DNA from: Haliotis rufescens
Taxonomy: Eukaryota
Assembly (NCBI RefSeq): GCF_023055435.1
Contig: NW_025964179.1
Span: forward strand, 558,001 to 622,000
Direction: 5' to 3'
Length of the DNA: 64,000 nt
A program made the translations under genes and the position numbers. Shown here piece after piece: positions 3,949 to 59,500 of the stretch (positions are counted from its first letter, which is position 1; each line of letters starts with the position of its first letter). Below the pieces are notes generated by a model. The model ran no database searches and had not been told where the DNA came from. It saw nothing but the letters and a program-made list of their open reading frames with translations.

Positions 3949-4655
3949 CATCTTCCAGAGGGGGCGGTCGGGTAGCCTATTGGTTAAAGCGTTTGCTCGT
4001 CACGCCGAAGACCCGGGTTCGATTCCCGACATGGGTACAATGTGTGAAGCCCATTTCTGGTGTCCCCTGCCGTGATATTGCTGGAATACTGCTAAATGGG
4101 GCGTAAAACCATACTCACTCACTCACTCATCTTCCAGAGGCAAGTGAGTTAACTGACTATAAAAGTCCAGTTTCCACCCTTGCTCAACTAGGCTGGTATT
4201 ATGGAGTTACATTTTGGCCGGACTAACGAGTCCAAGCATAGTCCAATCAAAATCGTGCAACAAAATCGAAATCTGGTTTGTAAACTTTCGTGCAAGATTT
4301 GCAAAGCATGTGCACCGCCAACTCGTTGCCAACAGATATTTTCCAAATCTTGTCATGTTTTTATTCAGGGTGCTCACGTGATTTGATGCACTTCGCGATG
4401 TAAGACCCATTTTATCTCAATATAGATCATGATTATCGATCAGATTGTACTGACTCGGCACCGCCATTTTATTTGAAACAAATGCAAGTGATACGAAAGG
4501 TGGAATCTGATTGGTCCATAGGAGAGGCTTAGAAGGGACATAAGTGGTAATAGCCACTGGTGGCGCTACAATCGAGCACAGGAATTCCAGCCTAGTTTGG
4601 CAAGGGTGGAAACTGGAATTTTAAAGTCAGTTAACTTCCTTGCCTCGGGTAGATG
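3949..4655. mobile_element. Non-autonomous DNA transposon (MITE, hAT- or P-type), interrupted by a SINE
   Basis: Imperfect TIRs of about 70 bp (catcttccagaggcaagtgagttaactgac... / ...gtcagttaacttccttgcctcgggtagatg). Exact 8-bp TSD TCAGTTGT at 3941-3948 and 4656-4663. Confidence 0.88.
3961..4129 (+). mobile_element. tRNA-derived SINE family A (~165 bp, tRNA-Asp-like head, (ACTC)n tail)
   Basis: A box tagcctattgg, B box ggttcgattcc, 14-bp TSD tcatcttccagagg; about 10 copies in the window. Confidence 0.92.
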
Positions 4656-7679: not shown

Positions 7680-7900
7680 TTGTTTGTTTGTTTAATGCCA
7701 CACTCAGCAATATTCTAGCTGTATGACGGCGGTCTGTAAATAATCGAGTCTGGACCAGACAATCCAATGATTGGTATCATGAGCATCTCTCCACACAATT
7801 GGGATCGATGACATGCATTACGCAAGTCAGCGAGCCTGACCATCCGATCCCGTTAGTCGCCTCTTGCACCTTTTACAGCACGCAGGGTTGCTGAAGCAGG
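7680..7900 (-). mobile_element. Retroposon family C
   Basis: Reverse complement of the family C core and tail. Confidence 0.85.
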
Positions 7901-8323: not shown

Positions 8324-8524
8324 CTATAATTAGATAGTCATTTATCTATGATAAATAACACTATGGTTCATCTAAATGTAACCTTATATAATATTATTCT
8401 ATCATTAGATAAACATTTAACCATGACAAGTAAGACTATGTTTCATCTAAATATAACATTGTTATAAGTTACATTTAGATGAAACATAGTCTTACTTATC
8501 ATGGTTAAATTTCAATAATCTAAG

Positions 8525-29500: not shown

Positions 29501-32500
29501 GGGTTATTTGTATTTCACTGGTATCAGGACCAGTGAAGAGGAAGTAGTTTATATTTACATATTTGGATACAACGTTATGATAACCTTTCTTAACTGAATG
29601 ACAATTTTTCCCTAATTTACCGGTCAAGGACACTTAGTTTTGTATCCTAGTAAGTTAATCCCTGTCACCAGAACCCTCAGTGAACAGTGACTAAAATAGA
29701 AGAGATAAAACAAGTTTTTTCAGCATAATGTTCCTATTTCATCAAAGTATATTTATTATGTGACCATGTTCAATTTTTTGAGTATTTCAACGATGTATAT
29801 TATTACTAAATGATTCAAACACCGATGTGACCCATGAAGATCCAGGGTATCAACTCATGCTTGTCGTAAGAGGCGACTAACGGGATCAGGTGGTCAGGCT
29901 TGCTGATTTGGTTGATGCATGTCATCGTATCCCAATTGTGTGGATTGTTCCTCGTGATGTCAATCACTGGATTGTCTGGTCCAGACTCGATTATTTACAG
30001 ACCCCCATCATATAGCTGGAATATTTCTGAGTGCAGCGTTCAACAACAAACAGAACAAACAAACAAACAAATCAAACACTGATGTGATGTTTTGTTGTCA
30101 ACATCTAAATAATTATCAGTACAATTCATTATTTGTTTGTGAGCTATACACATACGACTGACATGAAATGTTATAACAGATGCAGAATCACTGATCTTAT
30201 ACAGAAAATACAGATACTATTTACTTGGTATTGTATAAATGTAATAACAACAGATGCAGAATCACTGATCTTGTACAGAAAATACAGATACTATTTACTT
30301 GGTATTGTATAAATGTAATAACAACAGATGCAGAATCACTGATCTTGTACAGAAAATACAGATACTATTTACTTGGTATTGTATAAATGTAATAACAACA
30401 GATGCAGAATCACTGATCTTGTACAGAAAATACAGATACTATTTACTTGGTATTGTATAAATGTAATAACAACAGATGCAGAATCACTGATCTTGTACAG
30501 AAAATACAGATACTATTTACTTGGTATTGTATGTTATAACAACAGATGCAGAATCACTGATCTTATACATAAAATACAGATACTATTTACTTGGTATTGT
30601 ATGTTATAACAACAGATGCAGAATCACTGATCTTGTACAGAAAATACAGATACTATTTACTTGGTATTGTATGTTATAACAACAGATGCAGAATCACTGA
30701 TCTTATACATAAAATACAGATACTATTTACTTGGTATTGTATGTTATAACAACAGATGCAGAATCACTGATCTTATACAGAAAATACAGATACTATTTAC
30801 TTGGTATTGTATAAATGTAATAACAACAGATGCAGAATCACTGATTTTGTACAGAAAATACAGATACTATTTACTTGGTATTGTATGTTATAACAACAGA
30901 TGCAGAATCACTGATCTTATACATAAAATACAGATACTATTTACTTGGTATTGTATAAATGTAATAACAACAGATGCAGAATCACTGATCTTATACATAA
31001 AATACAGATACTATTTACTTGGTATTGTATAAATGTTATAACAACAGATGCAGAATCACTGATCTTATACATAAAATACAGATACTATTTACTTGGTATT
31101 GTATAAATGTTATAACAACAGATGCAGAATCACTGATCTTATACAGAAAATACAGATACTATTTACTTGGTATTGTATAAATGTAATAACAACAGATGCA
31201 GAATCACTGATTTTGTACAGAAAATACAGATACTATTTACTTGGTATTGTATGTTATAACAACAGATGCAGAATCACTGATCTTATACATAAAATACAGA
31301 TACTATTTACTTGGTATTGTATAAATGTAATAACAACAGATGCAGAATCACTGATCTTATACATAAAATACAGATACTATTTACTTGGTATTGTATAAAT
31401 GTTATAACAACAGATGCAGAATCACTGATCTTATACATAAAATACAGATACTATTTACTTGGTATTGTATAAATGTTATAACAACAGATGCAGAATCACT
31501 GATCTTGTACAGAAAATACAGATACTATTTACTTGGTATTGTATAAATGTTATAACAACAGATGCAGAATCACTGATCTTGTACAGAAAATACAGATACT
31601 ATTTACTTGGTATTGTATGTTATAACAACAGATGCAGAATCACTGATCTTATACATAAAATACAGATACTATTTACTTGGTATTGTATAAATGTTATAAC
31701 AACAGATGCAGAATCACTGATCTTGCACAGAAAATACAGATACTATTTACTTAGTGTTATATAAATGTTTTATTTCTGCCATAATTCACAAACTGTCATT
31801 AACAGGAAAGCATCCTATCTTTTTGACATTGTAGCTGCCACAGTATTGATCAGCCCATCAAATGTCAGCGAGGGTCTGTATCAAGTGTTCAAATCTCCGA
31901 GTGTCAGACAAGTACTAGTGTATCATGGAGCTCAGGTGGCCAAGGTTCCGAGGCATCAAATCTCCGTAGGTGTCAGGGGGGTGGGATGAATTCTTGGTTC
32001 CTCCTGATGCTTGGCCTCTTTGATGTCCCTGTTAGTGTGTTTTACCACAGTGGGAACCTACATCAATCAGGGCTCTCCTCCCATGTGAAGGTGACACTGG
32101 TTGATGTCATTAAACACTTCTGTGTTTCATGTCAGGAAGGGGCGGTGTTGTAGCCTAGTGGTTAAAGCATTCGCTCGTCACACCGATGGCCAGGGTTCAG
32201 TTCCTGACATGGGTACAATGTGTGAAGGCCATTTCTGGTGTCCCCCACCATGATATTGCTGGAACATTCCTAAAAGCAGCGTAATATCTCACTCACTCAT
32301 GTCCGGAGGAATGATATGGCCACCCCTCTGTCAGTTAGTGACCATGCATTTGATTGTATTTTGTGGAGGAGGGAATATATATAGTGTGTGGGTGTGTTGG
32401 GTGGCGTAGGCGAGTTGCTCGGATGATGTTTCAAGAAAATACTGGACCCATAGAATTCTGCATTAGGTTTTGCCAATAAAATATTCCGTCTCTGAGAAGA

Positions 32501-35500: not shown

Positions 35501-38500
35501 TGCAGGAAAGACTACAAACACCGAGAGATGAAAGGTTTCTTTTTTGATGAGACTGCAAACAAATCCCTTCAGTTAGCTTTGAGCTGATGTGTCTAGTGAA
35601 TTCGTATGATCCTCAAGCACAAGATGATTGGTGGTTGCTGGAGATAGTTTGTCTGTGTATTTCATTTCTACATACTTTTTCTCTTTTCCTTTTCTTTTTA
35701 ACTTTAGTTCTGACACTTCTTTTTTTTCTATTCTTTTTCTTCCTTTACTTTTGTTGGGCTGAGTTGGGTCACTTAACTGCTCAGAGATCAGCTGTTCCTG
35801 GGTTTGTAAGGAGGGGTAGCCTAGTAGGTAAAGCGTTCGCTCGTCACGCCGAAGACCTGGGTTTGATTCTCCACAAGTACAATGTTTGAAGCCCATTTGT
35901 CAGGTGTTTCCCATCATGATAATGCTGGAATATTGCTAAACGCGGCGTAAAACCATACTCACTCAGTATACAACAGATTATACATGAAAATATAATATTT
36001 ATAAAAACTTTGTGTTATTTTTACCTCTAAAGATTTATTATTAACTTTTGTAAGAATCATAGTCTTCTATCAACTTACATTTGTTGCATGTCTTATGGTC
36101 TCACAAAGCACTGTCTGTCAAAAATGCCACACTCTTTTAAAGACTCGTGATTGAACCCGCTCTTGAAATGAGTGAGTGAGTATGGTTTTACGCCCCATTT
36201 AGCAATATTCCAGCAATATCACGGCAGGGGACACCAGAAATGGGCTTCACACATTTCACCCATGTCGGGAAACGAACTCGGGTCTTCGGCGTGACGAGCG
36301 AACGTTTTAACCACTAGGCTACCCGACTGCCCCCTGCTCTTGGAGATAACATTGTAAAATGGTCTTGGGTATTACTGACTATCACATTCAGCAACCTTCG
36401 CACACAGTTATGTCTTTACTTGATAAAATTGCACTTTTTTCAGACTTTCCTAATTCATTATTAGGGGCAGTCGAGTAGCCTAGTGGTTAAAGCGATTGGT
36501 CGTCACACCAAAGACCCGGGTTCGATTCCCGACATGGGTACAATGTGTGAATCCCATTTCTGGTGTCCCCGCCATAATATTGCTGGAATATTGCTAAAAG
36601 TGGCGTAAAACCATACTGACTGACTGACTCATTCATTATTTACACCATTTGAAAGCGTTCTCTTGCCAACTGACAAGCTAGATCTGGAAGACTATAAATA
36701 TCAGCCATGATGTCCTCATTTATTCTTTAAAGGAGCCCATTATAGGCTGGGTGATACTTATGTTTTTTTTGTTGCAACAGTTAGTATGTGTGTTTTAGAA
36801 ATAACCTCCTCTATCTTGGTTGCATTTGTTTAGTTATGGTGTAGGGGTCAACTCATGTTGCCCAGCTGAATATCGACTTTTTTGTTGTACGCATATAATA
36901 GGGAGTCTGTGTCAGCTATTTATGCGACACTCATGTCAGATGTTACAAGGCATGAAATGCTCTGAATACGGATGTAAGTGTGTACTTTTATCTCACCATC
37001 ATCCGTATCTAAGATACACATAAGAAGATCTGTGTTAACGTTTTGTCGCATATGATGGATGAAGTTCTTGACAGCCCGAGGTACTGCTTGCCAACTACTG
37101 TTTCAGTTTTAAGTAAGAACTACTTCCATTAATTTGTGGAAATACTCCCCTAGCTTCTCTTGTCAAGAGTTGCTAGGCAACCCTGTAAAATAATGTATCT
37201 TTCATTTCACTGAATGACAGTCGGAGATGGCTTTCCCAATCAATAAGAGCTGGTTTTGTGCCCGACTCTTGAGCTATTGAGAAATGTGACAGTGTCAATT
37301 TCGCAAGATTGAACACATGCGTGAGACACTGGAATGGGAGAGGGGAAATGAGTGAAGGGATTATACTCATCAATAACGGAATTGATTGGGTGCTGATTTT
37401 GTTGTCTTTAGCACAACTGTGGATGGGGCTGGCGCGTTAGAGCGTTTCTGTGACATAATCCTGGTCAGATAGTATTACATCATGGATTATTATTAGCAAT
37501 ATTGCACAAAAAAACAATATTATTAAATAGAAAACATTTTTATGGGATGGGAGTTTGTAAAGATGGTGTTGTATAACAAGAAGATAAATACTTCTGGGGA
37601 TGCCCTAGATGGGTTCTTAAGGTGTAGAACCTTTGAGAATAGTTAGGCTGGCTGCACTTGTGTCAATTCATACACTCTTAACATAGGATGATTCTGAAAA
37701 AGTTGATTGCCGAGAGGAATATCTTCTGGGTAGAATTGGTCTCCACAGTCTCATGCTTTTGATAACAACGGACTAATGAGGATTACTGTATATGACCATA
37801 GATAAGCCAAATTGTGAAGACCAGAAAAAAGATTCAGTAAAAAGGAATCCGGCTATGTAAAGGTTACACTTTCATCAAACTATATTTCTGTTGGTAAAAA
37901 ACTACATCGTATCGCTTGAGGTGAACGAACAACGCTATTAAAAACTTTACCAATGAAAATGAGAAATTTGCGATTAAACATCACTGTTATGATTTGATGT
38001 AAGTAACTTGTACATCGTCTATGGTATAAATGAAATTGTTGGAATAATTGTGTCTCTGGAGTGAACAATTCACACATGTTGTCTATGGAATCCAGTTCCA
38101 AGGCCCATCCTGCCGTTATAGGGAACATGCTCAGCAAAAGCATGATCAGTTTCCAACAATATTCTAGATACCATCACCCTGCAGACAATTGCCCAGTCAC
38201 GTAGGAGGCAGCAGGCTCAGAAATACTGGCAAGCTCTATCATGTCTATTGTACTGTGGTTTGCTCTGGTAGCCATGTATGACTGAAGATGCTTTTGTGGT
38301 AGATCAGCCTGTCATATCTAGCAGACGTGACTTGTCGGCCATGTTGCTTCCATATCGACTAGTTCTCACTGTGGTTTTGGCATCACAGAGAAGGTATTAT
38401 GTCAGCAAGTGATCTTTTGTTAGTGTGTTAGCATGATTGCTGGGACATGAAATATTCATCCCTGTGTGAGAGTTTATTCAATATTAACACTGACTTGCCT

Positions 38501-44500: not shown

Positions 44501-47500
44501 AGAAATATTCTCTACCACTAATTTTTCTCTCAAAATCCGTTTCTATCTTTATGGTCAGTGCTCCAGATTTCACAACACGAGCTGATAATTTTGGAATGGT
44601 AATATTCAAGCGGGCGTTTTCTGTGATCCCGACTGTGTCTTTGATCTGGAGATGTTTGCTTTCATTCCCTGGCTCTCAATACAGTTTTTCTTCAAAGACT
44701 TACTTCACAATAGGACATTTGCCTCATTCATTATGCATACGTTGGTGTTCACATTCAGAGGAGACAGTGTCAGATGTGCTGCTTACCAAACAACTCATTG
44801 TCTTGAGATTAAGACTGCTTTGTCAAACATGCCTTGATAATGATGGTGAATAAATGGACATAATCAGTAATTTGTGGAAATAAAGGTCAATAAGTCCATT
44901 ATGGAGGCTTGATGTAGGATTTGTCTCAATATGTTCATTAGCGTTCACTCACTGGGTTCAGCATACGCTGTTGTCTCATTGGCATCACTGTAGGTATTAT
45001 CTCATGGGAAATACAGACTCTATACACTTCAACATCAGAGCTGTAACCTTTAGCTCAAACAAATGTACCGTAAGTCCTTGAAAAAATGTCAGCCTGGGCA
45101 GGCATATGCTTTGATTACAATGAATGAGCACCTGTTGTGAATAAATAATTAGTCAGCTGGCACACATAAGAAATATATGGCTGCCTTGATAATATGCTTT
45201 TCTCTAACTAGTGCCTGCCTAAAATAAATGCCTTCCTTGAACAAAAGCCTAGACAGACATTGGATGGGAAAGAAAAGTTAAATTATTCTCCATTTTCAAA
45301 AATGCTGATGTAAGATCAAAACAGTTTTATTTGGTGATAAAATAGCCAGGACGTTTACATATGCCTGAATGTTTTCTATTTCCGTAATTTGATGGCCCCT
45401 GAAAAATGAGAACACAAACCAATTTGGCCACCTCACACAATGCAGACATTCCTGCCTACACAGGTTATTAGTTTGTTTGTTTGTTGTTTAATGCCACTCC
45501 AGATGTAAATAATGAGGGCAGTCTGTAAATAATCGAGTCTGGACCAGACAACCCTGTGATTGACATCATGAGCATCGATCCACGCAATAGGGATACGATG
45601 ACATGCATGAACCAAGTCCGTGAGCCTGACCACCCGATCCCGTTAGTCGCCTCTTACGACAAGCATAGTTGCCTTTTACGGCAAGCATGTGTTGCGGAAG
45701 ACCTATTCTACCCCGCATCTTCACGGGTGAAATGATTCCTGTTACGGGCGGACATCCGCTAATAGAATGGGTAAAACGGTTTGTTTGTCACAATGTTTTA
45801 TGCAACATAAGTTGAATGAATCTGATGACTAAACAGGGTAAGCATGTATCCTGCCACGGTTATAGTTTGTTGATGTAAAGGTCAAGGTCATAATTCATTT
45901 TATTCCTCCTGTGTTCAATTCAGTCTAGGGGGCATGGGTGGCCCAGTCATCTGTGCAGAGTTGCGTCCCTTGGGCACGCCAGAAACCTATGATTGTGGGT
46001 TTGAATCCCGGTTCGCTCTGATTATGTTTCTAGGTTTGTCAGCACCATACCCGTGCTCGTGGATTTCACCAAAGTGGTAAACGTCTGAGACCTGCATCAC
46101 TTCGGGCTTTCCTCCCACATTAAGCTGACATGCCGTGATATAACTGGAATACTGTTAAAAGCGGCATTAAACCCAACTCACTCACTCAATTCGGTCTAAC
46201 AGGACATTGGTCAGCACTTGCAGGAATCCATATTGGAACAAGTTTTTCACTCTCCCATGTGACTATCACATGTCACAAATGTTATATGTGGGATTACACG
46301 CTTTGTAGAGTACAGATTGTAGTACTTTTTGGATTAAGTCCTGTCCGGGACTCGAACCCACACTCTCAGAGTGAGGCATCTAATCGCAAGCATAAAACTT
46401 CAGCGATCTAACCCACTCAGCCACCAAGGCCTCCACAAAAATGAAAGTCTGACAACTGGTAGTCTAGATCACGTACTTTGTGTACCCCTCTGACAAAGAT
46501 AATTTGGCACGGCTCCAGTGTACAAGCTATGAGTACATGATGCCATTTAGACAGTGAAATGTAACAAATGTTATATTTGGGATTATTCTCTTGGGATTAC
46601 ACTTTGTAAAGTACGGATTCTAGTACTTTTTTTATTGAGAATGTCAAATGTTTGCTTTTGTCTTTAAATCAAAGTCTACATCTAATGTCTGTTAAGCACA
46701 GAATATCCAATGTATTTTGGGTCATATCACTGCTCTGTTGGTGGAGAGTGGTCTGTGGCTTGGAAGGCAGTGTAGATATACCCATAAGATGTTACCTTAA
46801 ATACTGCTGGTCACACTACCATGCACGCACGCACGCACAAACGACGCATGCACTCAGTCTCACACACACACTCTCACTCTCACACACACACTCTCACACA
46901 CACTCACATTCANNNNNNNNNNNNNNNNNNNNNNNNNNNNNNNNNNNNNNNNNNNNNNNNNNNNNNNNNNNNNNNNNNNNNNNNNNNNNNNNNNNNNNNN
47001 NNNNNNNNNNNNNNNNNNNNNNNNNNNNNNNNNNNNNNNNNNNNNNNNNNNNNNNNNNNNNNNNNNNNNNNNNNNNNNNNNNNNNNNNNNNNNNNNNNNN
47101 NNNNNNNNNNNNNNNNNNNNNNNNNNNNNNNNNNNNNNNNNNNNNNNNNNNNNNNNNNNNNNNNNNNNNNNNNNNNNNNNNNNNNNNNNNNNNNNNNNNN
47201 NNNNNNTAAATGCAATTGTCTCAAATGCAATATCAAACCCCATTTCACCTCACCATCAAAAAAATTATATGCTTATTGATATTCCAACTACATAAATATC
47301 ATGAATATCATTTGATAGTTAGCAAGATGAAAATTATTTGGCAAGAAATATCCTGAAGAGATTTACTGGTATTATTATCATTATTGATTACACTTTGCAT
47401 ATTTAGACATACGGTACAGGAGTAATGAAAGGTATTTATGCATTCGTTCATCCGTGCTCCCCTCAGGACCATTTAAAGAGGCTTGCACTCAGGAATCTCG

Positions 47501-53500: not shown

Positions 53501-56500
53501 TCATTGTATCCTCACATAATGTCCTTCATTATACAGGTAATGGCACCCAACAGTTCATCAGCATCCCGGTATCCTTGGCAACGGGAGGGAATCAACAGAT
53601 TCAACTCTTGACGACGTCCAATGGGCAGATTATCGCCACAAATCTTGCCAGTTTACAGGCGCTGGCACAACCTCTCAACCTCGGTCTGGCTGGGGTCACA
53701 GGTAAACTTAAGACTCGAAAACATTAAAACACAATGCAACATGAAAAGGAAACTGAAATGTTTTGGTGGCTGTTACCATGACAACATGATGGTCAAAGAG
53801 CTGTTGATGTGAAGTTTGGCTGGTCAGAGTTTGTAACCTGGCGGAGGGGAGACAACTCTGTACACCACAGTAATGTGGTAGGGTAGCCCAGTGGGTTTAA
53901 AGCATTGCTTGTCAGGCCGTATACCTGGATTCGATTCACAACATGGAGACAGTGTGCGTCTTTCCTAGTGTATAAGACCCGTGAAAATGTGGGGTAGAAT
54001 TAGGTGTTCAGCAACACATGCTTGCTGTAAAAGGTGACTATGCAGGATCGGGTGGTTGGTTGACTGACTTGGTTGATGCATGTCATTGTATCCCAATTTC
54101 TTGGATCGATTCTCATGATGTCAATCACTGGATTGTCTGGTCCAGACTCGATTATTTGCAGACCGACGTCATATACCGGTAGCTGGAATATTGCTGAGAG
54201 CGGCGTTAAACAACAAACAAACAATCCTCGTGTATACTATGGCTAGAAACTATGCTATAAGCTGTATAAACCCTACTCACCCACTGGTAACATTCTAGAG
54301 GATGTATTTTGGTATACCATAGTCCACAACCGACTGACCGTTGTGATGCCAAATACTCTACCCGCAGCTAAATTATTTTCTTTGTTTGTCTTGAATTTCT
54401 ATTTCATCTGAACTATCATGAAATTGGGATATTAAAAATGTAAGGGGGAAGTTGGGTGCTTTTCCGTTAGTGTGATGAAACAAACAAACATGAATTCATC
54501 GGAAAATAGTAAATCAGTCGTTAAACTTTTCCCAATTCATTATAATGGCATTCCCAAAGACATACACGAAGGTATAAATGTCCCAACCTTGGGAGGTAGA
54601 GGGGAAATATCAAGATTCTTATCATGGCCGCCTGCCCACTGGTTGCAGCGATGGTAACAATGGAGGGTAACAAAGATGTCATACACAGGGTAGGAGCTTG
54701 TCTAGTAACATCCCAGGGGAGCCATGAAAACTAGGTACACCATAGTCTGGTGACTTCCCAGGGGAGGTAACTAGGTACACCATCGTCCAGTAACTCCCCA
54801 GGGGAGGTAACTGGGTGTAACACAGTACATTACCCAAGCTCCTCACAGCGATAGTACGTTCCCGGAGCTCTCTATACTATTGCTGCCACCAGTCAAAACT
54901 CCCCACTGTGAATAGGTGGCCACAACCATGCTTGGAGTTGAACTCGCAACCGAATGACCGTTTTGTTTACAAACAAGTGACGACTGTCGTGACGCCGAAT
55001 ACACTTATAGCTGCTAAATTACTTTCTTCGTTTGTCAATTTGAATTTGTGTTTCATTACAACTATCATGTAATTGATACAGTAAGAATGTAAGGGAGAAG
55101 TTGGTTGATTTTCCGTTAGTCTGCAATCTCGAACCAAGCTGATTATCAAAACAACAAAGTAAATTCATCTGGAAAACATGGTCAGTCGCAAACCTTTTCA
55201 AACTGAAATATGATGGCATTCCCAAAGACATAAACAAAAGTATAAACGTTACTACATTTGGAGTTAGAGGGCAAATTTCAAGATTCTTGTAATGGCCGCG
55301 CCCACACTGGTGGCAGCGATGTTACCGAGAGTGTAACGAAGGTGTCACACGCTGGGAAGGAGCTTGTACATTACCATCCCAAGGGAGGTAACTTTGTACG
55401 CACTAGTCATCCAGTACATTCAGTCAGAAATAAACTGAGAATATTATCAGTGGAAATGTTTTTGTGAATGAACAAAAGAAGTGCATTATGTAATAATGTC
55501 AGTAAGGAAGCAGGAAATAATGTATTGCTTTCCCGGAACCAAAAAGTATTTCATTATGAGCTTTATGTTGTTCCAACTGGTGCAACTGAAAGCAATTTAT
55601 TCTGAAATGCGTTGAAGCATGACTTGATAAGGCTACATCATATGTTGTTCTAGTATGGTGGAAAAGGTAATTGTGTTTGAACAATAAAATTCTGCATTGA
55701 TATTCTTCATGGGAAGATGTCTGAAAACATGCATTCATCTTGCAGGATAAATGTGTGATTTGTTGCATTAAATATGAACATCAAGTCTCTTCTCTATTAG
55801 ATAAACCATGTATTTTGGCCCCTGTGAATATCTTGGTTAGAATCTATACTTGTCGTAGAAGACAACTAACTGGGTTTGGGTGATCGAGTTGGATCATGTC
55901 CCATTTTCTTAGATCGTTGTTCATGATGTCAGTGTCTAGATTGTCTTGTCCATATCATGAATATGATCATCTTTTACTCGTGGTGATAACAAAAATATGT
56001 CATGTGTCACAAGCGATAACAGGAATATGTCATGAGTCACGAGTGATAACAGGCATATGTCGTGTGTCACTCATGATAACAGGAATATGTCGTGTGTCAC
56101 TCATGATAACAGGAATATGTCATGTGTCACTCGTGGTGATAACATCAATATGTCATGTGTCACAAGAGGTGATAACATCAATATGTCATGTGTCACTGGT
56201 AATGATAACATAAATGTCATGTGTCACAAGTGATAACAGGAATATGTCATGTGTCACAAGTGGTGATAACATCAATATGTCATGTGTCACAAGTGATAAC
56301 ATCAACATGTCATGTGTCACTAGTGGTGATAACATCAATATGTCATGTGTCACGAGTGGTGATAACTCAATATTACCCTTGTGGTGATGTCAACTCCATG
56401 AGGACGTGGGTGAGATGAGATCACCAGCTTGTTGTAAGAGGCGACTCAGTGGATTGGATGGTAAGACTCAGTGACTTGCCTGCTTGCCTGTCATCACACC

Positions 56501-59500
56501 CAGGAGTGTGATTATTGCTCATGATATCATCCATGGTTTGTCTGGTCCAAACATAATTATTTACATTGCTGCCCCCATCATTAGCCAGCAACAAGAATAT
56601 AAAACAAAGGGATGATAATATGAGTTTGATCATCTGCCACTAGCAATGGTTAACTGATTTATTAACATCTTTCATTCTAGTAATAGCAGGGTGTTGGGGT
56701 AGCCTAGTGGTAAAAGCGTTGGCTTGTCACGCCGAACACCTGGGTTCGATTCCCCACTTGGGCACAATATGTGGAGCCAATTTTCCGGTGTCCCCCGCTG
56801 TGATATTGCTGTGTAAAACCATACTCAAGTTTATAATAGCGTGAGTGTATTTATATAAGTCACTGTTCACTTACGACATGATGTTTGTCACCTTGAAGCA
56901 GTCGGTCAATCATGATGTTGATGTTCCAGCAGGCAGTGTCTCCAGCCCTGCAAGTCACCACGGTAGCAGTAGTAGTAGTAGTCACGCAGTGTCGAGTCAG
57001 TTGGCGGCAGCGTTGCCACAACTCTTGTCCACAGGAGCACAGGGGCAGCTGCTAGCATTGGGCACACAGGTAGGTACAGCATTGCTGAGGAGATACTGGT
57101 GATAGTGGGGTGTTATGATCGTTACAGCATAACTGAGGAGATACTGATGGTAGTGGGGTGTTACCATTGTTACAGCATAGCTGAGGAGATACTGGTGGTA
57201 GTGGGGTGTTACCATCGTTACAGCATTGGTGAGGAGATACTGGAGGTAGTGGGGTGTAATGATCGTTACAATATTGCTGAGGAGATACTGGTGGTAGTGG
57301 GGTGTTATGATTGTTACAGCATAGCTGAGGAGATACTGGTGGTAGTGGGTGTTATGATTGTTACAGCATTGCTGAGGAGATACTGGAGGTAGTGGGGAGT
57401 TATGATCGTTACAGCATAGCTGAGGAGATACTGGAGGTAATGGGGTGTTATGATCGTTACAGCATAGCTGAGGAGATACTGGTGGTAGTGTGGTGTTATG
57501 ATCATTACAGCATAGCTGAGGAGATACTGGTGGTAGTGGGGTGTTATGATTGTAACAGCATAGCTGAGGAGATACTGGTGGTAGTGGGGTGTTACCATCA
57601 TTACAGCATAGCTGAGGAGATACTGGAGGTAGTGGGGTGTTATGATTGTTACAGCATAGCTGAGGAGATACTGGTGATAGTGGGGTGTTATGATCGTTAC
57701 ACCATAGCTGAGGAGATACTGGTGGTAGTGGGGTGTTACCATCATTACAGCATAGCTGAGGAGATACTGGAGGTAGTGTGGTGTTATGATTGTTACAGCA
57801 TAGCTGAGGAGATACTGGTGATAGTGGGGTGTTATGATTGTTACAGCATAGCTGAGGAGATACTGGAGGTAGTGTGGTGTTATGATTGTTACAGCATAGC
57901 TGAGGAGATACTGGTGATAGTGGGGTGTTATGATTGTTACAGCATAGCTGAGGAGATACTGGTGGTAGTGGGGTGTTATGATTGTTACAGCATTGTTGAG
58001 GAGATACTGGTGGTAGTGGGGTGTTATGATTGTTACAGCATTGCTGAGGAGATACTGATGGTAGTGGGTGTTTTGATTGTTACAGCATAGTTGAGGAGAT
58101 ATTGGTGGTAGTGGGGTGTTATGATTGTTACAGCATAGCTGAGGAGATACTGGTGGTAGTGGGGTGTTATGATAGTTACAGCATAGCTGATGAGATATTG
58201 GTGGTAGTGGGGTGTTATGGTAGTTATTATAGCAGTTGTGATAGAATACTGGGGATAGTGTCTTATCAATTCTGGAGATTTGTATGAAAAACTTCCTAAC
58301 AGTTCATCCAAATAGATTTACGACCTGTTTGTACATTGTATAAGGTTGTCTTTCTTTGTACAGAGTTGTGTCTCTTTAAAAAGAAAGAGTTTTGCTCATT
58401 TTCTAGCTTTCTTCATTCTTTATTTTCAGAATGCAATCCGAGGATTATCATTAGATGGAAAATTCAAGTTTGATAATCAGGTGATGAAATACTTTTTGAC
58501 ATTTCAAATATGTATGATATCAAGTGTGGAGAAAAAACAACTAAATCAAAGTTGTTCTGCTAAATATTTATCCAACTTAATGTATAATTTATGCGGTATC
58601 CATTTTGCCAAGCCAAATACCCCATTTTTTCAAATTTGAAATTGGGGGGAAAAAAGAGGCTTGTCAAAGAAGAAGGTTTCTAGTGTCAAATCCCATTTAA
58701 CATTTTCAGCCAAGCATTTTTCAGCATAAACTCCAGTCATTTTGCAATATTTTTTCATCTTATGCTCGTGAGAATTGTGCTATATTTATTCATGTAGTCT
58801 AGATGTAATTGTAGACACGGGTACCCCCAGTCGTCTTAGTTGCCACAATTTCGCACTGTAGAGTTGCATTCATTAGTCATACCAGAAACCTGTGACAATG
58901 GGTTTGATTCCCGGGAGCGATCTGATCATGTTTCTAGGTTTGTCAGCACTGTAAGCATAGGCATGGTTTTCATCCAATCACTTCGGGCATTCCTGCCAAC
59001 ATCAAGGTGACATGCTGAGATATAACTGAAATACTGTGTTGAACCCACCTCTCTCACTCTTTCATGTAGAGGGGGCACGGGTGGCCCAGTCATCTAAGGC
59101 ACCGCGATTCACTGTGCAGAGTTGCGTCCCTTGGGCACGCCAGAAACCTATGATTGTGGGTTCGAATCCCGGTTCGCCCCGATTATGTTTCTAGGTTTGT
59201 CAGCAACATACCCGTGCTCGTGGGTTTCACCGAAGTGGTAAACGTCTGAGACCTGCATCACTTTGGGCTTTCCTCCCACATTAAGCTGACACGCTGTGAT
59301 ATAACTGGAATACTGTTAAAAGCGGCGTTAAACCCAACTCACTCTCTCACTCACTCATGTCGATATGCATTCATTAACTAATCCACCATTTCTCCTCAAT
59401 ATAGGTGCTGACACCAGTCTCTGTCGCTCAAGTAAATAATTCTTCAGCTTCCTCCAACCAATCAACTGCTGGCGCTGCAGGTCATTCAGCCAATCACACC

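Follow-up and report, generated by a model that had tools for sequence, protein, structure and literature searches.

LP-SINEs, among them a 255-bp Haliotis family (Hdi_LP/Hmi_LP), carry a LINE-derived ‘head’ of ~70 nt that is shared with the 5' ends of Nimb-17_LMi, I-3_DR and RTE-9_CPB; their discoverers suggested a promoter for the head and noted an analogy with the promoter/ribozyme of L1Tc, no partner LINE being named in the accessible sections of the paper (PMC4758252). MetaSINEs are defined by a tRNA head with a 66-bp Meta domain directly behind it (PMC4824008). For LINEs, six clades are listed as ribozyme-bearing, with Nimb/I not among them in the accessible portion of the source (PMC5786205). 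On the viral side, xrRNAs are typically placed at the start of 3' UTRs, sometimes in tandem (PMC8374639, PMC11702639), the pseudoknots of class 3 having the strand order A-B-A'-B' (PMC11702639); a viral xrRNA also blocks nuclear XRN2, and the downstream product of the HDV ribozyme is spared on account of its 5'-OH (PMC6938672).

The 64-kb stretch of DNA analysed here (‘the window’) holds a family of the first of these kinds. Its SINE type and head sequence are already published (PMC4758252); what we add is a predicted fold for the head, its occurrence in viruses, and a candidate partner LINE with a predicted HDV-like ribozyme, none of which—nor a function for the head—was found in the text of the openly searchable literature or in Rfam 15. 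The results bear on how SINEs and LINEs with no recognisable promoter gain precise 5' ends, the LP-SINE head itself having been known since 2016.

A tRNA-less SINE with a sharp 5' end

The repeat under study is a SINE copy of ~260 nt on the minus strand (45729–45471), the segment first annotated being its 5' part. BLAST places copies or remnants of the family at ~17 sites in the 64-kb window (19 pieces), where the initial annotation had counted about 12–15, and an own-genome search (1.33 Gb) returned at least 1323 first-look candidate copies. The common start that had been proposed is indeed sharp: in 54 distinct heads, taken from the window and from fetched own-genome stretches, the upstream sequence is random from −7 relative to an invariant UG, and positions −6 to −1 read G-A-C-C-C-G at 65–85%. 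The claimed lack of a tRNA head also holds, a B-box-like word lying upstream of just one of the 54 heads, itself a tandem repeat, such that no tRNA precedes the other 53; an HDV L3 loop was found upstream of none of the 54. TSDs flank 13 of the 39 copies having both head and tail, ending 0–5 nt before CCCG with a mode of 2 (6/13), and the 3' end is a (CAAA)n terminal repeat. Duplication of the hairpin module, seen at the outset in a subfamily, is common (10 duplicated versus 9 single, in the window plus 200 kb of unbiased genome). The repeat is a tRNA-less SINE of the LP-SINE type; we infer that the window family is Hdi_LP of Haliotis, likened by description, as the published consensus appears only in a figure. 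The parts of the copy, together with two further copies, are:

45471..45729, minus strand: whole SINE copy, duplicated-hairpin subfamily, LP-SINE type
45724..45727, minus strand: S1 5' strand CCCG of the predicted pseudoknot; the family 5' end lies 2 nt upstream, at 45729
45716..45723, minus strand: L1 (invariant U = 45723) and S2 5' strand
45712..45715, minus strand: S1 3' strand CGGG
45704..45711, minus strand: L3, its end being the conserved AGAAUA
45697..45703, minus strand: S2 3' strand, 6/7 pairs in this copy
45683..45696, minus strand: linker and P3 5' strand, decayed in this copy
45666..45682, minus strand: hairpin module, duplicated degenerate copy
45643..45660, minus strand: hairpin GUCG-UAAGAGG-CGAC and UAA, near-invariant
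45638..45642, minus strand: P3 3' strand
45486..45535, minus strand: LINE-like 3' tail; its homologues are the tRNA-SINE tail in the window and the 3' end of the L405 LINE (below)
45471..45487, minus strand: (CAAA)n terminal repeat
29829..30066, plus strand: second SINE copy, near full-length, with an internal deletion in the head
53976..54224, plus strand: full-length SINE copy inserted in a decayed tRNA-SINE that does not serve as its head; TSD-like repeat by eye

The minus-strand copy is itself decayed, with a G.G mismatch in S2, a mutated P3 and no clear TSD.

The 17-mer of the head had been likened to the MetaSINE core. This attribution fails, since a MetaSINE requires a tRNA head and the window family has none; moreover, the 17-mer is labelled ‘Nimb-17 homology’ in scallop SINEs, where it precedes the tRNA part and does not belong to the MESC (=Meta) domain (PMC4758252). 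Attribution of the head to the V domain was likewise rejected. Small-RNA reads, available from a related organism, were mostly ~30 nt long, antisense and from one start.

Predicted fold of the head

An anchor alignment gives the layout of the head as S1 (4–5 bp), U, S2 (7 bp), S1', a loop ending in AGAAUA, S2', a linker, P3, G-N-N-U, GUCG UAAGAGG CGAC, UAA and P3'. Our model for these ~70 nt is an H-type pseudoknot, in which the 5' CCCG is predicted to pair with a loop CGGG, followed by a hairpin that caps P3. In 21 hand-picked representatives (4 from the own genome, 13 metagenomic and 4 viral; spacers and registers set by hand, kinship ignored in the counts), S1 is paired in 81 of 84 cells with its offset taken as 0 or 1 (row-shuffle mean 68.9, 0/5000 reaching it) and in 72 of 84 with no fitted offset (63.1 shuffled), S2 is paired in 123 of 147 (shuffle mean 88.8, 0/5000), and P3 has 91 pairs against 73.2 (6/3000). 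At most positions of S1 and S2 we see G-C, C-G and A-U exchanges.

The long stem of the initial annotation, GAAGAUC/GGUCUUC, is recovered here as S2, as is its near-invariant hairpin GUCG-UAAGAGG-CGAC with the UAA that follows. The pseudoknot it had drawn between a loop GGGU and ACCC gives way to that of the 5' CCCG with the loop CGGG, which covaries in 21 families; its closing helix, between the 5' CCCG and a CGGG after the UAA, is paired in 45/84 cells (shuffle 40.1; 37/3000) versus the 81/84 of CCCG with the loop. The hairpin stem is invariant, partly through the search patterns—which also impose the invariance of the 17-mer—and relaxed patterns found no variants with an altered stem; covariation therefore cannot confirm it, and the stem might instead be set as GUC/GGC around GUAAGA. 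Single-strand folding, in which pseudoknots are not modelled, gives modest z-scores of −0.3 to −2.0.

A pattern scan of metagenome contigs found at least 119 stretches with the head, coming from several unrelated repeat families that have only the head in common. An independent structure descriptor of both domains fits 45 of the 116 metagenome matches listed, versus 2 of 120 prokaryotic matches to a like pattern, a scan that looked like chance and was used as the control. It is passed by 1 of 28 matches in a viral scan, 23 of those 28 being chance matches, and by 1 of 14 own-genome copies (6/14 for the pseudoknot), these being decayed copies picked with a deleted query.

As for ribozymes of known fold, none of the Rfam models gives a match in the window at E<=1. 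The HDV, hatchet, hairpin, twister and pistol folds were rejected for the head on topology and on the lack of an Rfam match. Against HDV, the head has the covarying order S1-S2-S1'-S2' and then a separate domain. In the hatchet (P1–P4) the 13 conserved bases are found in J1/2 and in the P2/P3 bulge (PMC4604424), those of the head lying in L3 and the hairpin.

A candidate partner LINE with a predicted HDV-like ribozyme

A variant head pattern, with 160 matches in the own genome, leads to an intact LINE (L381/L405) that, judged by its coding sequence, belongs to the I group: ORF1 has 453 codons from stop to stop, with CCHC knuckles recognised by eye, and ORF2 (1229 aa) runs through endonuclease, RT and RNase H (Pfam Exo_endo_phos_2, RVT_1, RNase_H). 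This LINE has head and tail in common with the SINE. Because its 3' end aligns with the SINE tail (score 40, the maximum of 2000 shuffles being 31 and two other LINEs giving 14 and 10), we regard it as the candidate partner LINE; head and tail are both absent from the 20 best-scoring RT loci, which are I-group LINEs.

Nucleotides 1–57 of L405 are predicted to adopt the canonical minimal fold of an HDV-like ribozyme, reading as a 7-bp P1 with a G1.U wobble, P2, a 3-bp P3, L3 UCCUCGU, P1.1 and J4/2 GCUAA. Rfam model RF02682 scores 28.5 bits here (E 0.0028 for a 601-nt stretch), below its gathering score of 44, and across 82 copies only two peripheral positions vary much. The TSD adjoins G1, and the head motif stands at nt 58, directly 3' of the ribozyme and in the exact −6 register. 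There are at least 827 exact own-genome matches to the LINE's motif; in the first 90 listed, 87 LINE copies have their 5' end at the ribozyme G1, the other three at nt 11, 12 and 39, and 0/90 at the motif, indicating that in the LINE neither cleavage nor initiation is efficient at the edge of the head itself. A query placed downstream collected 30 loci: 19 of them extend to G1, and the 11 shorter ones include one (L463) that starts at nt 58, the −6 register. Many LINE copies have CCAA instead of CUAA.

The ribozyme is a separate module of the LINE, without counterpart in the SINE. The HDV-like ribozyme initially suspected is predicted, then, directly upstream of the leader in the candidate partner LINE, and is not the leader itself. 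The accompanying idea of a non-autonomous element with a structured or catalytic leader survives in that the element is LINE-derived, tRNA-less and pseudoknotted; an HDV-like or otherwise self-cleaving leader is not supported, the topology being wrong and the 57 nt upstream being kept in 87/90 listed LINE copies.

A fixed 5' register in ribozyme-less families

Among the matches listed, two of three metagenome families have a sharp start at −6 from UG (A 75%, n = 28; G 91%, n = 23), the −6 start of the third being less clear (n = 11 among the matches listed); conservation in the own SINE also begins at −6, and the first bases differ between families. AGAAUA and the hairpin differ in their distance from the start of the head by as much as ~20 nt. 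With the register constant while these distances vary, the 5' end appears to be measured from the pseudoknot. HDV-like sequence upstream of metagenome heads amounts to 3 loose matches among the 116 listed, none convincing by eye. At one metagenome locus (L069) the head precedes a similar ORF1, without a ribozyme. A tandem array whose units each hold a single motif was also found.

The motif in viruses

The exact 17-mer matched 5 viral contigs, and a tight degenerate pattern 7, all structured (7/7) and representing 6 distinct viruses. Pfam identifies four of these as RNA viruses (RdRP_3; RdRP_3 with Capsid-VNN; Peptidase_A21; RdRP_4), and a fifth has RdRP-like motifs by eye, with no Pfam match. 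All five carry the motif on the coding strand, 6, 11, 24, 74 and 101 nt past the last stop and 27–119 nt from the contig end, the caveat being that viral contigs may be incomplete, such that the ‘3' UTR’ may in some be intergenic. Their motifs have 3–4/4 of S1 and 6–7/7 of S2 paired, with stem sequences that differ; one virus has a second, tandem motif, cut by the contig end. In a 212-kb viral record the motif sits between two genes, ~150 nt upstream of an ATG. Three whole viral contigs checked have no terminal repeats, and relaxed viral patterns returned mostly chance matches in phage coding sequence (5/10, 1/6, 18/23, 55/62, 30/30), and whatever they contributed beyond the tight pattern was chance. 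Since RNA viruses carry the motif, a function at the RNA level is required, a DNA promoter being meaningless there.

Discussion

We favour, with a rough probability of 0.45, the reading that the SINE leader is a block common to the partner LINE and to the 3' UTRs of RNA viruses, acting as an xrRNA-like roadblock to 5'→3' exoribonucleases that gives the SINE its defined 5' end. The fold would form in cells, SINE RNA would arise by read-through transcription from the host, and the pseudoknot would halt Xrn1/Xrn2, with host transcripts being trimmed to 6 nt before the invariant UG; such trimming would provide a promoter-less SINE with a defined, stable 5' end, and the L405 LINE would mobilise it. 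In viruses the halt would leave behind a short 3'-coterminal RNA or protect the genome's 3' end, and in the LINE the roadblock may act as a back-up behind the ribozyme's 5'-OH end. An exonuclease block would explain the fixed ends of the ribozyme-less elements, the tandem copy, and why the motif lies where viral 3' UTRs begin. It is compatible with the LINE data because the 5'-OH of an HDV product is not attacked (PMC6938672). Against it, 0/90 sampled LINE copies start at the motif, such that halted RNAs would be rare templates in the LINE, the head lacks the features that define xrRNA classes 1 and 3, and own-genome copies fit the structure descriptor poorly. It leaves unexplained the LINE's retention of the motif and the invariant hairpin 3' of the pseudoknot, both of which suit a translation element.

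Such an element, 3'CITE- or IRES-like and recruiting ribosomes independently of a cap, would serve RNAs that have no cap, viral ones from the 3' UTR and the ribozyme-cut RNA of the LINE from the 5' UTR, and would bring SINE RNA to the ribosomes making LINE protein. We hold this to be unlikely, if well worth entertaining: 3'CITEs also fit the position in viral 3' UTRs, at least 827 LINE copies preserve the motif intact downstream of the ribozyme, a setting in which a roadblock looks superfluous, its near-invariant unpaired bases suggest a host-factor site, and it precedes an ATG in the 212-kb record. Ribozyme-led cap-independent translation has, in addition, been reported for retrotransposons and RNA viruses (PMC13725137). 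Translation alone, however, does not account for the register, fixed just before S1, of four ribozyme-less families; the two readings are compatible, in that the hairpin domain could serve translation and the pseudoknot act against decay. A self-cleaving ribozyme of a new class, cutting 6 nt before the invariant UG, would suit the sharp 5' ends with their fixed register, the many conserved unpaired bases, the one motif per unit of the tandem array, and a layout loosely like that of hatchet, whose cleavage site is the base of P1 (PMC4604424). We nonetheless consider it improbable, as 87/90 listed LINE copies with a perfect motif begin at the HDV G1, retaining the 57 nt before it, with 0/90 at the motif; cutting right after the last stop would sever the 3' ends of viral genomes, no Rfam ribozyme model matches the motif, and CCAA replaces CUAA in many LINE copies.

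The internal DNA promoter proposed by the LP-SINE authors, with transcription starting at the first base of the head, draws on the presence of the head at the 5' ends of SINEs and three LINEs (PMC4758252). The frequent 5' G (65% in the own SINE, 91% in metagenome family C among the matches listed), which could be a reverse-transcribed cap, points the same way; yet covarying stems and G.U pairs occur in RNA viruses, whose cycle lacks a DNA stage, 0/90 listed LINE copies start at the motif, and the spacing from 5' end to conserved words varies widely, making a promoter very improbable in our estimation. We give equally little credence to a binding site for LINE protein that helps to complete the 5' junction, as the R2 5' pseudoknot does (PMC6765202), and that viruses captured from abundant SINE RNA. 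The very high share of full-length LINE insertions (in the 90 listed) speaks for it, but viral stems have been replaced with 3–4/4 and 6–7/7 pairs kept, which argues for selection in viruses without reverse transcriptase, and the head is common to the Nimb and RTE clades (PMC4758252).

To return to the exonuclease roadblock, its widest form would be a new xrRNA class of animal retrotransposons, traded among LINEs, SINEs, +ssRNA/dsRNA viruses and a large DNA virus, by which host 5'→3' decay carves promoter-less elements out of host transcripts, as a third way to 5' ends next to internal promoters and ribozymes; we advance this tentatively, thinking the odds somewhat against it. The likely partner LINE, for its part, places a predicted HDV-like ribozyme in a LINE group that the accessible part of the survey does not count among the ribozyme-bearing clades (PMC5786205). 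The motif is 70 nt long, with natural compensatory variants in retrotransposons and viruses, and an assay is feasible in days. Were it Xrn1-resistant, it would be an xrRNA within host genomes and a new compact fold with which to stabilise uncapped RNA; were it to drive translation, it would be a portable translation element.

Comparison with known systems

One point of reference is s2m. It too is a short structured RNA that RNA viruses and invertebrate genomes have in common, through horizontal transfer (10.1101/2020.06.29.177030). s2m is a single stem-loop; the head motif is unrelated to it in sequence and fold and marks the 5' ends of retrotransposons. With LP-SINEs the window family shares the absence of a tRNA, a length of ~255 bp, a LINE-derived head of ~70 nt, TSDs and a 3' tandem repeat, and the scallop ‘Nimb-17 homology’ block shows, by eye, AGAA(U), the 17-mer and compensating stems (PMC4758252, suppl. 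Fig. S2). The AATATA hexamer of that paper is AATATT in the window family; the accessible sections give no head fold, partner LINE or viruses (PMC4758252). As with the HDV-like ribozymes of R2, RTE, L1Tc/ingi and LOA, the one predicted in L405 has G1 as the first base of the element, whereas the SINE head is without their nested P1-P2-P3-P1.1-P4 topology (PMC5786205, PMC6765202).

Of xrRNAs, the three-way junction core with two pseudoknots of classes 1 and 2 is absent from the 5' domain, with no Rfam flavivirus match. The likeness is to class 3 (diantho/luteo/polero/ST9a): a compact pseudoknot whose order S1-S2-S1'-S2' corresponds to the A-B-A'-B' of that class, a 5' helix strand at the extreme 5' end, an A-rich linker (PMC11702639, PMC8374639), and an apical loop that pairs with a 3' strand, the loop of the S1 hairpin forming S2. 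In place of the P1/P2 stack, J1/2 bulge, L2B U-turn and AGY motif of class 3 (PMC11702639), the head has a single S1 of 4–5 bp, a 1-nt L1 and the AGAAUA linker; it differs further in its extra, near-invariant hairpin domain and in occurring in host retrotransposons. On the best reading, then, the head would be xrRNA-like in how it works, whilst standing outside classes 1–3.

Variation and distribution of the head motif

Loop L3 of the predicted pseudoknot can accommodate extra sequence, either an additional hairpin or a U-rich insertion of 16 nt (metagenome stretches L093 and L042; the L038 family), with AGAAU still adjoining S2 despite these additions. Two I-group LINE families, abundant and young, are without the head motif (L355–L374; ORF2 of 1260 and 1279 aa, tail (AAGT)n). 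In small-RNA run X22, from a related organism, antisense RNAs of ~30 nt match both the motif of the intact I-group LINE (L405:8077-8106) and the body of the SINE (L386:1385-1415), with single start sites accounting for 85 and 63 reads, respectively; we describe these RNAs as piRNA-like.

Further features, within the window and in a viral record:
window 3966-4037, 36469-36640, 42433 and 56693-56764: second SINE, tRNA-headed, its LINE-like tail common to the head-motif SINE
window 8409-8515: AT-rich, near-perfect palindrome
L647:2980-3050 (212-kb record of a large virus): head motif, intergenic, sense relative to both neighbours

The palindrome is probably a MITE; Rfam miRNA matches here fall far below threshold, and a related piece lies just above window position 7900.

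Comparison with other elements

The snail SINE Pan_3 (supplementary Figure S7 of PMC4758252), whose 5′ end had been left undetermined, starts with the head motif, which is unlabelled in that legend. In metagenome family B (L095, L060, L090, L057), a tRNA-like head comes after the motif; A/B-box-like words are discernible in this head by eye, and Rfam gives it no tRNA match. The motif would be retained here upstream of a pol III promoter whose start would fall downstream of it. The scallop MESC SINEs have this same layout.

At G000:C57:2176600-2236900 (own genome, L391–L404), AT-rich units of about 600–820 bp are arrayed in tandem, nearly every one carrying a single head-motif variant (many dozens of copies among the matches listed). 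The array is probably an amplified SINE head, but in having one motif per unit it is reminiscent of ribozyme-bearing satellites.
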